Origin: an uncultured Nitrososphaerales archaeon
GTDB taxonomy: Archaea > Thermoproteota > Nitrososphaeria > Nitrososphaerales > Nitrososphaeraceae
DNA length: 64,000 bases
NCBI GenBank assembly: GCA_963713605.1
Contig: CAVQMO010000010.1
Coordinates: 608,001 to 672,000, forward strand
Reading direction: 5' to 3'
The notes under the pieces are model-generated. The model was not told the DNA's origin, made no database searches, and worked only from the letters and a program-made list of their open reading frames with translations. Below, piece after piece: positions 57,196 through 64,000 of the stretch. Position numbers and translations under genes: made by a program. Position 1 is the first letter of the stretch. Each line of letters opens with the position of its first letter.

Positions 57196-57930
57196 TTTTG
57201 GTAATCTCTGTGAACTATATACAATCCAGAATATAACCAAATTGGAATTTTCTTCTCTAACTGAAATAACTGAAATATATTGAACTAATGATCTTTTTGA
57301 GAACCTCTATATATTAAGCGTCAACTATTTACACGCTGTAGTCTGCCTTGTTTTCAAGATAGCGCGATTTTCTGGATATTTTAGGTGTCTTTAACTTCGA
57401 CAGAGAAGGATTCAACACTAAAGCGAGATACATACCATTGCATTTCATTATGACATCCACCATGGATGAGGGCGTAAGAGATGATTCTCGACTATCGTTT
57501 TCATTCTCGAACATTAGAATTAGTTCCTAAAATGACTATTACGAATGCCCACGGGGAAGGAGATGAAGATAAAGATGAATTGGGATTCGCGATGCAAAGA
57601 ATTCAATTTTCGTAAAATCGGTTAGATCATGCTATTACTGTCATTCGACTGGTATTGTCGAAGCCTTAAAGAGGTAACAGATGAAAAATATGAGCTTCTC
57701 GTATTTTAACAATCTTATAGGTAATTCCAGAATCCCTTTGGTTTCCAGAATGTAATAACAAATAGTTCAAAAAATGAAGGGACTGCTTTTGGAAGGAAGA
57801 AAATAAAGATAAGTAGCATTATCTGCATTTGCAATCACACATCGATTCAAGTAATGCGGTATGGTTACGGATACAAGACTATGGAAGACATATAGCTAAA
57901 ATATATAAGCCATAGCGTTCGGTCAAATTT

Positions 57931-60900
57931 GTGCATATTAGAGGGACGTCTTTACAAACATATTTGTTTCTAACAATGGCGTTGGCCGCGATAGGCCTCC
58001 AGGTCGTGCCAATAAGCCAAATTTTCGCCACATCATCAGCTGGCTCAGCATCTGCAGCGTCGGGAGGATCAGCTTCAGCAGCTGCTGCAGCTGCGGGTGA
58101 CGCGGCTTCAGCAGCTGCTTCAGCGGCAGGTGCCTCATCAGGCAGCGGCTGCATCAGCAGGCGAGGCAGCATCTGCAGCAGCCTCGTCAACAGGAGAAGG
58201 ATCAGCCGCTGCCTCAGCGGCGGGTTCTTCCGGACAACGTTCAGCCGCAGCTGCGGCAGCAGCAGCAGGATATTCAGCTGCAGCGGCTGGAGCAGCCTCG
58301 TCCAACGGTGATGCAGCCGCGGCAGCGGCAGCCGGTGCATCAGCCGCGGGCAGCGGCAGCCGGTGCATCAGCCGCGGCAGCGGCAGCAGCGGGTTCAGCC
58401 GCTGCAGCCGCGGCCGCTTCTGGCTACGAGTCGGCTGCTGCTGCCGAGCAGCAGCAGCGGCAGCTGGCAACGGTGGTTCAGCAGCTGCAACGGCGAGCAG
58501 CAGCCGGGGGAGCTGCTGCAGGTGTAGCAGCTGCCGACGGTTATTCTGCTGCGGCCGCAGCTGCAGCAGCGTCTGGTCGGTCTGGTGCTGCCGCCGCAGC
58601 AGCCGGCAGCACAGGAGCTTCATCAGCCGCTGCCGGTTGTTCAGCTGCAGCCGCAGCTGCAGCAGCTAACGGTGCGGCCGCTGCGGCCGCTGCCGCAGCT
58701 TCTTCCGGCGGTGGATCGTCTTCTGCAGCTGCCGCAGTAGCAGCGGGCCAAGCAGCAGCCTCAGCAGCAGCATCAGGTGGGTGTTCCGTATCAGCAGCTG
58801 CAGCGCAGCAAGTGCAGCATCTTCGGCAGCCGCAGGAGGTTCAGCCCGCCGCAGCCGCAGCCGCAGGAGGTTCAGCCGCCGCAGCCGCAGCTGCAGCAGC
58901 CACAGGAGGTTCAGCCCGCGCAGCCGCAGCGGCAGCAGGGGCGGCTTCGGCAGCTGCCTGCAGCTGGCGGATCATCTGCTGTTGCAGCTGCCGCAGCAGG
59001 TGGCGGCGCAGCCGGGGCGGCAGCTGCTGCAGCCGGGAGTGCAGGCAGCAGCAGCAGCATCGAGCTCAGGGCTTAGCGGCGCAGCGGGCAGCAGCAGCAG
59101 CTGGTGGGGCAGCCGCAGCGGCAGCAGGCAGCAGCTGGTCGGGCAGCCGGAGGCAGCAGCAGCCTCAGCAGGTGGCGGTGCAGCCGCAGCAGCAGCAGCG
59201 GCAGGAAGTGCAGCCGCAGCCGCAGCTAGTGGTAGTGGTGCAGCAGCCGCAGCAGCAGCAGGAAGTGCAGCAGGTGCAGCAGCAGCCGCAGCTGCAGCAG
59301 GTAGCGGCGGTGCAGCAGCAGCCGCAGCCGCGGCTGGCCAGGCGAGCAGCCGCAGCCACAGCATCAGCCGGTGGCTCTGCAGCAGCAGCAGCAGCAGCAG
59401 GTGCAGCAGCATCAGCCGGAGCAGCAGGTAGTTCAGCCGCAGCTGCAGCAGCAGGTAGTGGTGCAGCCGCAGGAGCAGCTGCAGCGGGTGGTGGTGCAGC
59501 CGGCAGCAGCCGCAGCAGCTGGTAATGCAGCTGCTGCAGCAGCATCATCAGCCGGTGAGGATGATGCAGTCAGCGAGCAGCCTCAGCAGCAGCATCCGGT
59601 GGTGGTGCAGCGGCAGGTGCAGCAGCAGGTGAGGGCAGCAGCCGCAGCAGCAGCATCCGGTGGTGATGCAGCAGCAGGTGCAGCAGCAGCCTCAGCAGCC
59701 GCAGGCAGCAGCCTCATCAACAGGCAGTGAATCAGGCAGCAGCAGCAGCAGGCAGCATCATCAGCCGGTGAAGATCCAGCAGCAGCCGGCAGCAGCAGCA
59801 GCAGGGCAGTCAGGCAGCAGCAGCAGCAGGAGCGGGTGAAGCGCGGCAGCAGGAGCAGTAGCAGCGGGTGAAGATCCAGCCGCAGCAGCTGCCCTCAGCA
59901 GCTGAAGAAAATGGAGGCTCAGCAGCCGCCGCAGCTGCCGCAGGTCAAGCGAGCAGGACAGTCAGGCAGCAGGCAGCAGCAGCAGCAGAAGGAGCTGGTC
60001 AGGATCCAGCAGAAGCCGGCAGCAGCTGCAGCAGCGGCAGGCGCATCGGAACCTGAACAGGCGCAAGAAAGCGCTGCCTGGGGCAGCTGGAGCTGCGCAG
60101 ACTCTTCAAACTCAGATCGAAGAGCCTACTGAAGAAGGAGCGCCACAGCAGCAACAACAACAATTAGCACCTCCAGAAGACGGTGTAGCACCTCCAGAAG
60201 ACGGTGTAGCACCTCCAGAAGATGATGAACAACAGCGGCAATTATTGGCCCCAGATGGTGCGCACTCCAGAAGGGGGCAGCTCCAGAGTGTGATCCTCCT
60301 GAAGTACTAAATCCAGATACAAATCAATGCGAAGCTCCTCAAGAAGCAGCTCCAGAGTGTGATCCTCCTGAAGTACTAAATCCAGATACAAATCAATGCG
60401 AAGCTCCTCAAGAAGCAGCTCCAGAGTGTGATCCTCCTGAAGTACCTAAATCCAGATACAAATCAATGCGAAGCTCCTCAAGAAGCAGCTCCAGAGTGTG
60501 ATCCTCCTGAAGTACTAAATCCAGATACAAATCAATGCGAAGCTCCTCAAGAAGCAGCTCCAGAGTGTGATCCTCCTGAAGTACTAAATCCAGATACAAA
60601 TCAATGCGAAGCTCCTCAAGAAGCAGCTCCAGAGTGTGATCCTCCTGAAGTACTAAATCCAGATACAAATCAATGCGAAGCTCCTCAAGAAGCAGCTCCA
60701 GAGTGTGATCCTCTGAGGACTAAATCCAGATACAAATCAATGCGAAGCTCCTCAAGAAGCACTCCAGAGTGTGATCCTCCTGAAGTACTAAATCCAGATA
60801 CAAATCAATGCGAAGCTCCTCAAGAAGCAGCTTCCAGAGTGTGATCCTCCTGAAGTACTAAATCCAGATACAAATCAATGCGAAGCTCCTCAAGAAGCAG

Positions 60901-61523
60901 CTCCAGAGTGTGATCCTCCTGAAGTACTAAATCCAGATACAAATCAATGCGAAGCTCCTCAAGAAGCAGCTCCAGAGTGTGATCCTCCTGAAGTACTAAA
61001 TCCAGATACAAATCAATGCGAATCTCCTCAAGAAGCAGCCTCCAGAGTGTGATCCTCCTGAAGTACTAAATCCAGATACAAATCAATGCGAAGCTCCTCA
61101 AGAAGCAGCTCCAGAGTGTGATCCTCCTGAAGTACTAAATCCAGATACAAATCAATGCGAAGCTCCTCAAGAAGCAGCTCCAGACGGTGGTGCGAGCCCC
61201 AGACGGTGGTGCAGGTCCACAGGCAGCAATTTGCAGCTCCAGAAGATACAACTCCTATCTGTACTCCTCCTGAGGTTTTGAACACTGACACCGGTGAATG
61301 CGAGGTTCCGGAACCGCCTCCAGGTGACAATGAAGCAGTAGCTCCTCAAGTAGGCGTTCCCTCCTGTCTTCCTGGCGAGGTGTTCAATCCTGCCACAGGA
61401 ATATGCGAGGTTACTCCTCCAACTGAATCAGGCGATCAACCACCTAACAATGGTGGAATACCGTCAGGACCACCAGCGAATGGAGAAACTGATGGCGATG
61501 GAGACCAGCCAGACCAAGAGTGA
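57931..61523 (+). CDS. Giant secreted low-complexity protein: signal peptide, poly-Ala/Gly-Ser blocks, acidic linker, Cys-hairpin tandem repeats; multiply frameshifted
   Basis: Signal peptide (..MALAAIGLQVVPISQIFA); GCN-codon runs 58036..60110; 69-bp repeats; single logical end GDQPDQE* at 61523. Confidence 0.75.
60283..61179 (+). repeat. 69-bp tandem repeat x13 encoding PECDPPEVLNPDTNQCEAPQEAA
   Basis: Units start at ~60283, 60352, 60421, 60491, 60560, 60629, 60698, 60764, 60834, 60903, 60972, 61042, 61111; two diverged units follow. Confidence 0.95.
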
Positions 61524-62113: not shown

Positions 62114-62986
62114 TCAGAAGACCGATTTAAGTGCCTTTACGAATTTGGATGAATCTGAAACCCATCCAAAGACCCCACCTTGCATCTTTATTTGCTTTAT
62201 AGCAGCCTGATAATTGTCGTAGTCAGTAGCTCCAGTACCATCTTTTAGTAACAAGCACCAGTATCCATTGTCGTTGGCTTCCCTCATTATGGTGTGTACA
62301 CACACATCGGTCGTGATTCCTGTTATGATAAGATGGGTAATACCAAGATTCCGTAAAATCAATGGCAGGTTACTCTGGCCAAATGCGCCTTTACCTGCCT
62401 TGTCTACCACATATTCTCCTGGAATTGGATAAACGTCATCTATGATGTCCCAATTTTTTTCACCCCTTATGAGTAGCCTGCCCAAACCTCCTTTAGGAGT
62501 ATCACCGATTCCTATTCCGTTTCCAATAATTTTACTGCGGAGTATTTTATTGTAAGGCGCGTCAGAGAGATCCGGAAGATGCCCTTCCCTAGTATGGACC
62601 ACCTTGATGTCTGTTCCATTTCGAATTGTCTCCAAGGCATACATAATCTGTTTTATGGGAGCCGAGGTTAACCCAAGATCATATCCCATTACATCCACGT
62701 ATCCCTTTGAACCACAAAAATCAACTTGCATATCCACGCTTATGAATGCAGTTCTAGCTGAATCAAATTCAACAAATGCTTTGTCACCAAACCGTGGACA
62801 ATCCTCAACTTCTACTGTTAAAAGTTTACCTTTAACAGGACCATAAAGCCAGGTAGGAAATTTGAATGTATGACTTACCTTAAATTCCTCGTAGTCTCTT
62901 TCAACCTTGCTCACAATTTCATCTTTAACTCTAGTTGACATACTATTTTCAGATTTTCTTGCTCTTAGAGAATTAGTCTTCCTCAT
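62114..62986 (-). CDS. biuH: Biuret hydrolase-like cysteine hydrolase (isochorismatase superfamily)
   Basis: DMQVDFCG..GYVD.MGYDL.L, HTREGH.PDL.D, RGE..WDII, DKAGKGAF, GITTDVCVHT.MREAND, KMQGGVFG. Confidence 0.8.
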   Translation of the reverse strand: MRKTNSLRARKSENSMSTRVKDEIVSKVERDYEEFKVSHTFKFPTWLYGPVKGKLLTVEVEDCPRFGDKAFVEFDSARTAFISVDMQVDFCGSKGYVDVMGYDLGLTSAPIKQIMYALETIRNGTDIKVVHTREGHLPDLSDAPYNKILRSKIIGNGIGIGDTPKGGLGRLLIRGEKNWDIIDDVYPIPGEYVVDKAGKGAFGQSNLPLILRNLGITHLIITGITTDVCVHTIMREANDNGYWCLLLKDGTGATDYDNYQAAIKQIKMQGGVFGWVSDSSKFVKALKSVF

Positions 62987-63274
62987 TAAAATTCGTCACC
63001 AAATTCAGTTACCAGCGTTTCTTTCGTCAACTTGTATAGTCAATCCTGAGAATAACGCTGTTGATGCACAGTACAAAATCCCATTAGATGAGAAGCAAGT
63101 TTGGTCACTCCAGGAGGCAATTCTAAATTTCGATACAATTGACAGGCGATATCATGTCGATTAATATAAGGATTAACTATCATTCTTTCTATTTGAAGAA
63201 AATATGATTAGAAAAAAAAACAATTTCATTTATGCAAAAATCTAACTACGACGTATTAGGGAGCCATAATCAGC

Positions 63275-64000
63275 TCATACGTTCCTATCGCTCAAGCAGG
63301 GTGCAAACATTCTTTCAGAAATTTTTGAATTACTCTCATACACGTTTGCAAGACTAAGAAGAAGACCTTCGTCGAATTCCCTTCCGACGAGCTGAACACC
63401 AACAGGAAGGATGCCGTTTACAAGTCCTGCAGGGACGTTAAGCGAGGGTAGACCTGTGACATCAAAGACAGTGGTAAGTCTACTGAGTGCTATATAGACC
63501 TCCGTATTTTTACCATTGATCTCTATCGAAGTGTCTTCCAACTTGGGAGCACTAATGGCAGTTGTTGGGTACTAACAGGCCATCCAGTCCCCTCATGGCT
63601 CTCAAAAAGTCGTCCTTTAGCTCCTTCTTGTAGCGAAGTGCAGTTATATATTCAACAGCAGTAATTTTGGTCCCTCTTTCAAGCATGGCCAACACATCAC
63701 TTCCGTACTCATTGCGCCTAGAATTCAGCCATGTAGAATGAACCGCTGCCTGATTCACCTAATCGGAACGCCTTCCAAGCGTCAGAAATCTTGTGTGTCT
63801 CATTTAAGGAAACTGGGACCGTTGAGATCCCACATCCGTGCATCTCATCCAAACAGTCTTCAAAAATTTCCATAACGCTTGAATCGATTAGATCAAAAAA
63901 GTACTGTTCGGGTACACCCAAAGTAAATTTTCTAGACTTGTTCAAGGTCTCGGATACAATTTGAAGGTAATTAGGAACGGGCAAGTCCAGTGTTGATTCA
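63275..64000 (-). CDS. Amidase-signature family enzyme, C-terminal part (5' end outside window); frameshifted
   Basis: LGVP..YFFD, L.RG..I.A.EY..A, D.LLVPT, T..FD.TGLPSLNVPAG, LPVGVQLVG..FDE..LL. Confidence 0.85.

Follow-up and report, generated by a model that had tools for sequence, protein, structure and literature searches.

The closest characterized relatives of the hydrolase considered here are the BiuH enzymes of Rhizobium leguminosarum 3841 (6AZO/6AZQ; PMC5806882) and Rhodococcus sp. Mel (6XJM), together with TrtA of Herbaspirillum sp. BH-1 (6XIX; PMC7948467), which belongs to the same family. In BiuH, the residues reported to contact biuret are D36, F41, Y47, K142, K145, I170, T171, V174, C175 and Q215 (PMC5806882). 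TrtA and BiuH have nearly all first-shell residues in common, yet their specificities lie four orders of magnitude apart; six sites discriminate between them, namely TrtA F35, N41, E160, Y187, I205 and A134, and the substitution A134S is described as without effect on TrtA (PMC7948467). On the side of the amidase-signature enzymes, AtzE is known to have an obligate partner, AtzG, and a linked AtzH (PMC6219798).

A cluster uniting biuH with a ‘gatA-like’ amidohydrolase gene, purE, a FAH gene, bmpA-nupABC and allFGHK has already been described in ammonia-oxidizing archaea (AOA) of the Nitrososphaeraceae by Rasmussen et al. 2025 (PMC12625717). According to that study, which credits a Nitrososphaera biuH to Robinson et al. 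2018, biuH occurs in 19 AOA MAGs and in 27 of 554 GTDB representatives, N. viennensis among them; the hydrolase has an extended N-terminus, atzD and a linked atzF are absent (no atzD being reported in the study's own nitrifier MAGs), and the amidase, which is set apart from GatA, AtzE and HpxY, is proposed as an allophanate hydrolase. Biuret-type compounds were proposed there to support nitrification.

The window (the whole stretch of 64 000 nucleotides that was analysed, G000:C10:608001-672000) belongs to an assembly of 4.09 Mb in 15 contigs that is 87% complete. Its attribution to an AOA in the first-pass annotation is borne out by an archaeal amoA on the same contig as the hydrolase gene; the nearest named homologues of the hydrolase (89–96%) are Nitrososphaeraceae and Nitrososphaerales records, and a urease alpha gene is present on contig C1 of the same genome. 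The hydrolase gene and the co-oriented amidase gene upstream of it, an arrangement that had been noticed correctly from the outset, head a 15-kb cluster with a PurE paralogue, a FAH protein, a BMP ABC transporter and allFGHK (table 1), the names allK and allG being based on translations, synteny and PMC12625717 rather than on a family scan. Nothing essential differs from the cluster of PMC12625717, in which the purE copy is treated as an ordinary PurE. Both the arrangement and the inference of an ammonia source are already published, the function being predicted from sequence in each case; the passages of PMC12625717 covered here do not mention the lost phosphate loop of the PurE copy or the invariant Arg of the amidase described below, and literature searches found no enzyme or culture test of the AOA biuH cluster.

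Table 1. Features of the hydrolase–amidase locus; positions are those of the window unless contig C10 is named.
Feature	Position	Strand	Remark
BiuH-type cysteine hydrolase, 290 aa	62114..62986	(-)	intact ORF; subclade with long conserved N-terminal extension
AT-rich block with TATA-like core	63159..63182	(-)	conserved; in the 288-bp amidase–biuH gap, with the BiuH start about 170 bp downstream
Amidase-signature enzyme, C-terminal part (‘GatA-like’ AOA clade)	63275..64000, on to about G000:C10:672740	(-)	
PurE paralogue	C10 673087-673686	(+)	beyond the window
FAH protein	C10 673747-674676	(+)	beyond the window
BMP ABC transporter	C10 674785-679882	(-)	beyond the window
allF/allH/allK/allG-like genes	C10 680200-685709	(+)	beyond the window

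The gene order of the cluster is conserved in five same-genus loci up to where their contigs end; in other genera it is rearranged, and codB-type permease and creatininase-like genes often accompany it. Among 69 loci, many of them short, the neighbours include the PurE paralogue in 35, FAH in 35, the codB-type permease in 19 and the creatininase-like gene in 13. Homologue searches with the FAH and BMP proteins indicated no specific substrate. In six RNA runs, 5–8% of words were present, a proportion that indicates nothing either way on expression. Elsewhere in the window, positions 57900-61520 are occupied by long Ala/Gly-rich repetitive coding followed by tandem Pro/Cys/Glu-rich 22-codon repeats with many frameshifts, and an Ala-rich region resembling it lies at C10:686700-688500.

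The hydrolase itself displays every BiuH feature that had been named for it: the triad (D85/K196/C229), the second Lys (K199) and Q269 are in place, as are the motifs DFCG, GYVDVMGYD, DKAGK, GITTDVCV and KMQGGVFG. Its start ATG is conserved in all six same-genus sequences, and six pairwise comparisons, with 61–87 synonymous versus 18–30 non-synonymous codon changes, indicate purifying selection. The match to Rhizobium BiuH (6azo) is far beyond chance (E = 3.6e-71), and among PDB entries BiuH (243 and 225 bits) ranks above TrtA (156 bits) and RutB (80 bits), the identity to the solved BiuHs being about 50–56%. An AlphaFold model (pLDDT 90, residues 1–14 disordered) has BiuH (6azq) as its best Foldseek match. 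With the Rhizobium numbering taken from the printed alignment minus a 20-residue tag, all 10 biuret contacts are present. Across 62 homologues with a coverage of 255 residues or more (taken from 68 of the 69 loci of the subclade, L079 being left out, plus L001 and L053–L055), eight of the 10 are invariant, namely the triad, F41, Y47, K145, T171 and V174, while Q215 is kept in 59 (two Glu, one gap) and I170 in 52.

A comparison of signature residues with those of BiuH, TrtA and GuuH also comes out on the side of BiuH. Five of the six discriminating sites are BiuH-type (Y96, Y102, D227, T254 and V272); at the sixth, that of TrtA A134, a Ser would be expected for BiuH and the protein has an Ala, as do 56 of the 62 homologues (the other six having Gly) and Rhodococcus BiuH 6xjm. 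None of the five TrtA residues F35, N41, E160, Y187 and I205 is found, so that by this signature the protein is not a TrtA, whereas the control sequences Agro_ich2, L125_second and L133_second do carry all five. In the guanylurea hydrolase GuuH, a Glu stands where BiuH has its Gln; by this signature the protein is not a GuuH either, the residue here being Q269 and a Glu occurring in only two Nitrosospira copies. These two proteins (L122 and L138) belong to the same subclade, are encoded near a urea-carboxylase-type gene, and have possibly shifted to a guanidine-type substrate.

Residues alone do not fix the substrate, because the first shells of TrtA and BiuH are nearly the same and their specificities very different. 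Moreover, the protein scores 281.3 bits with the NCBIfam BiuH equivalog NF050097, which is by far its best model but whose cut-off is 370; for this reason we call it ‘BiuH-type’ and place it in a sister subclade outside the equivalog. Compared with the solved BiuHs, it has about 50 extra N-terminal residues, formed by a conserved helix (18–38) and an insertion, and it carries NKILRS in place of NKRWRS; indeed, R98-W99 are replaced and NK[IVL]LRS (with a V instead of the L in a single copy) is seen in 62 of 62 homologues. A quick 27-row tree, two rows of which are spurious frames, separates the long-N-terminus proteins from the canonical BiuH/TrtA rows (SH-aLRT 99). Residues, fold and gene context agree, and we infer from the sequences a sister subclade that would work like BiuH.

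These departures could nevertheless be read otherwise. The long-N-terminus subclade might hydrolyse another ureide, for instance a carbamoyl compound that derives from purines or pyrimidines and is made by the PurE-paralogue, FAH or creatininase-like neighbours, biuret being at most a side substrate. The score below the NCBIfam cut-off and the clade-specific changes with the extension would fit such a role, as would the most constant neighbours in AOA, which are not genes of a biuret pathway (PurE paralogue, FAH, codB-type and creatininase-like), and the fact that neither atzD nor trtA was found in this genome to supply biuret. However, the biuret contacts without exception and five of the discriminating sites are those of BiuH, and outside the AOA the same subclade keeps different company: in two haloarchaea its gene stands directly before an allophanate hydrolase gene, in Natronolimnohabitans (L132) one whose product is above its family cut-off and in Natronorubrum (L163) an annotated atzF; a TrtA-signature hydrolase is encoded within about 4 kb of it in L125 and L133, and AtzD-family and all-type genes lie near it in L124 and L133. 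The allophanate hydrolase and TrtA-type neighbours support biuret as the substrate, and we consider another ureide rather unlikely. As a separate observation, a gene for a stand-alone allophanate-hydrolase C-terminal domain directly follows the hydrolase gene in Nitrosopumilus (L118:8800-9204), in a region with IS66 transposases.

Only the C-terminal half of the amidase lies inside the window; its start is near window-equivalent position 64740, and the codons of its catalytic Lys/Ser/Ser are at 64476, 64251 and 64179, outside the window. Two single-base +1 insertions, one near 63750 and one near 63568, split the frame, which would agree with a pseudogene decaying in this organism. However, both insertions lengthen short base runs, both are absent from four of four same-genus relatives, and similar +1 insertions break other genes of the cluster. 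In contigs from four short-read runs (two studies, one possibly the source), the base at 63567 is absent in four of four, three of these contigs being otherwise identical, and the base at 63747-63749 is absent in the three covering runs, the contigs of which carry 8–11 other differences. As relatives and short-read contigs lack the insertions and other cluster genes are likewise hit, the two frameshifts are most likely assembly errors, and decay of the gene is hardly credible. The amidase tests were run on the intact relative L049, 87% identical. Between the two genes, the AT-rich block (table 1) is near-invariant in all six same-genus sequences, the alignment of which has a mean identity of 79%; judged from this conservation it is possibly BiuH's own promoter. 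A sigma-70 scan gave nothing above chance.

The first-pass annotation had brought the amidase together with AtzF and AtzE, a proposal that comparison with these families did not support. The amidase-signature Lys/Ser/Ser triad is invariant in 36 of 36 AOA cluster copies. As AtzF, the enzyme was rejected by family score, an intact relative reaching 232 and 254 bits against cut-offs of 511 (TIGR02713) and 487 (NF006043), whereas the control from Natronolimnohabitans (L132) gave 580 and 633 bits, above both. It was rejected as AtzE, four intact relatives scoring 332–375 and 321–356 bits against cut-offs of 461 and 426, with an AtzE model as the top-scoring model in three of the four, and as GatA, with 334–352 bits against a TIGR00132 cut-off of 481. 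A separate GatA-like gene on contig C1 groups with the GatA gene adjoining gatB in L118. In a quick tree, the 36 cluster copies and a paralogue on contig C5 form a clade of their own (37 rows, SH-aLRT 99, with long-branch warnings), separate from AtzF, the identity of this clade to AtzE, AtzF and GatA being 30–34%. AtzF and AtzE of pADP-1 (NC_004956) have the triad in common with it, and the AOA W-x3-R-L motif resembles that of AtzF; in contrast, identity to these two enzymes is 30–32% and the C-terminal domain of AtzF is lacking. In this 87%-complete genome, AtzH was not found by a search whose control worked, an AtzG search saw none, though no control scored either, and tblastn with pADP-1 AtzG and AtzH gave 0 matches. 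By its sequence, the amidase is a separate Nitrososphaeraceae clade, neither AtzF nor AtzE nor the GatA of the genome. A homologue search returned 7802 matches, the best 120 of which are all at least 63% identical and bear automatic GatA or amidase names only.

Further amidase genes were met in passing. A second amidase of the GatA-like clade, 42% identical, is encoded among unrelated neighbours at L153:8562-10073 (G000:C5, about 258600-260100), and similar matches of 40–50% occur in many genomes without biuH. An AtzF-clade amidase gene, unlinked to biuH and frameshifted in the assembly, is found at L154:7013-8880 (G000:C12, about 357000-358900); its product has an LLY...R motif and a hydrophobic N-terminus resembling a signal or membrane anchor.

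Within the cluster clade, the Arg of a W-x3-R-L-G-E helix is invariant (36 of 36 copies). MAFFT and hhalign, with nine AtzF sequences, put this Arg on AtzF R328, for which gaps of one and four residues are needed; in the gap-free register, R328 falls on a Ser and the invariant Arg lies one helical turn earlier. The gapped alignment places a Tyr on AtzF Y320 in 27 of the 36 copies (Ser in this genome). We take Tyr320 and Arg328 of AtzF to be substrate-binding residues, R328 binding the substrate carboxylate. The invariant Arg suggests that the amidase may act on a carboxylated substrate, the identity of which it does not name; no mention in print was found of such an Arg of this amidase, close to where AtzF binds its substrate.

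The distribution of the genes bears on the partnership of the two enzymes. Among 201 genomes of the family, BiuH homologues occur in 52, spanning 11 of 18 genera at 77–96% identity, the cluster amidase in 41 (cut at at least 530 bits, the next score being 500, with two partial high-identity matches left out), the PurE paralogue in 36 (cut at a score gap, 239 versus 229 bits) and allH in 32. biuH is present in 36 of the 41 amidase genomes, in 32 of the 36 with the PurE paralogue and in 27 of the 32 with allH; without the unpublished G077, G099 and G160, which these tallies include, the figures are 35 of 38, 31 of 33 and 27 of 31, and the biuH total is 51. In all of these counts, related genomes are not independent of each other and the majority of the assemblies are fragmented. 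Conversely, the amidase is absent, at the chosen cut, from 16 of the 52 biuH genomes, including the single-contig G001, so that it seems dispensable in some genomes.

BiuH could also act on biuret while the substrate of the amidase is oxamate (made by AllFGH) or oxalurate, the allophanate decaying to urea for urease. Such a division would account for the failure of the amidase at the AtzF cut-offs and for the Ser facing R328 in the gap-free register; the genome has a urease and the unlinked AtzF-clade gene on contig C12, G001 carries biuH alone, and allophanate is reported to decay to urea (PMC6219798). However, allH is present in 23 of the 41 cluster-amidase genomes versus 36 for biuH, and is thus missing from 18 where biuH is missing from only five, in genomes most of which are fragmented and whose kin are not independent. 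We hold oxamate or oxalurate to be an unlikely, albeit serious, candidate for the amidase.

The first-pass annotation had also sought the origin of the biuret in urea fertiliser or cyanuric acid, which our results do not favour. A search for atzD, effective on two positive controls, found none in this genome, which in this respect differs from the systems of the solved BiuHs, and the gene was found in only two of the 201 family genomes; a cyanuric-acid pathway was rejected. In two Nitrososphaeraceae genomes as binned, L244 (G142:C89) and L245 (G190:C133), an AtzD-family gene 48–50% identical to pADP-1 AtzD sits in a block of allG, an unidentified ORF, atzD and allK. A separate TrtA was rejected too, all 38 matches to a TrtA-type query (E ≤ 1e-62) being the biuH loci themselves; in this genome the other isochorismatases are less than 37% identical and no separate trtA was found. 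For TrtB, a weak search with one Agrobacterium-cluster cupin presumed to be TrtB-like gave no match. Because the hydrolase gene is widely spread (52 of 201 genomes, 77–96% identity) and under purifying selection, its substrate would be old and natural rather than fertiliser-derived; urate oxidation is a described source of triuret (PMC7948467).

The canonical purE of this genome is located elsewhere, on contig C1, among genes read from their translations as purine biosynthesis. The paralogue of the cluster has in common with class I PurE (N5-CAIR mutase) its fold (TM 0.87), a score above the TIGR01162 cut-off and, in 33 of 33 copies, the catalytic His as well as the motifs HLPG and QMP. The phosphate-binding Ser of class I PurE is located 27 residues before this His (PMC10484210). 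In contrast, the MGSxSD loop is replaced in all 31 paralogue copies that cover it (33 copies, two truncated), with Pro for Gly and with the Ser replaced by K (17), E (8), R (4) or Y (2). Among 80 control PurEs, which are the ordinary PurEs of the metagenome scan for the paralogue and were retrieved with patterns built without the phosphate loop, the loop Gly is kept in 79 and the Ser in 76. As the phosphate-binding loop is replaced, the paralogue would be expected to act on a non-phosphorylated substrate. No report of this loss was found in print, including by term searches of PMC12625717, within a coverage that leaves out most subscription journals; the part of PMC3261824 covered has nothing on the PurE loop. 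In seven of the 33 copies, the Arg following the catalytic His is replaced by a Trp as well.

Our main reading, with a probability of about 0.6, is that the hydrolase converts biuret to allophanate and ammonia within a natural-ureide scavenging cluster of AOA. The substrate, which likely arises in soil when purines or urate are broken down oxidatively and not from fertiliser or triazines, would be imported by the BMP ABC transporter. C229 would quite probably attack the terminal amide of biuret via a thiocarbamate intermediate, by analogy with BiuH. The allophanate might then be hydrolysed by the adjacent amidase, for which we see slightly less than even chances, or would decay to urea, followed by urease. 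Either route would release 3 NH3 + 2 CO2 per biuret, the NH3 going to ammonia monooxygenase and biosynthesis. Such an ammonia source for an AOA, as put forward in the first-pass annotation, is plausible and equals the published hypothesis (PMC12625717).

Even with enzymes working as predicted, the flux may be too small to fuel nitrification, the cluster serving nitrogen scavenging or the clearance of endogenous purine-oxidation products. The patchy presence of the gene (52 of 201 genomes) is consistent with this, and in the soil incubations cited by PMC12625717 the nitrification of biuret and triuret is far slower than that of urea. A dedicated importer, either the BMP ABC transporter or the codB-type permease, is however often linked and points to an external substrate, and we regard a merely minor flux as possible but unlikely.

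A wider proposal, that the cluster is an undescribed complete ureide-to-energy pathway in which AllFGH, AllK, the PurE paralogue, BiuH and a new allophanate-hydrolase family act jointly, is a long shot. AllFGH, with phosphate, would split triuret or another polyurea into biuret and carbamoyl phosphate, replacing the missing TrtA, and AllK would turn the carbamoyl phosphate into ATP; the PurE paralogue, devoid of the nucleotide-phosphate loop yet with the catalytic His in place, would be a new decarboxylase of N-carboxy compounds (carbamates), its substrate being a non-nucleotide, for example 1-carboxybiuret, and BiuH and the new allophanate-hydrolase family would complete the breakdown. If this were true, a soil AOA would gain substrate-level ATP as well as ammonia from purine oxidation products. 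The likeliest sources of new enzymology are the repurposed PurE paralogue and the amidase, the AllFGH chemistry being also of value.

Returning to the main reading, the cultured carrier N. viennensis (as listed in PMC12625717) makes the idea directly testable. Provided that the enzymes act as predicted, nitrification of the nitrogen in biuret and related purine-oxidation products could be open to about one in four of the Nitrososphaeraceae genomes sampled. The substrates of AOA would then widen beyond ammonia, urea and cyanate, and the finding would bear on the fate of the biuret present in urea fertiliser.
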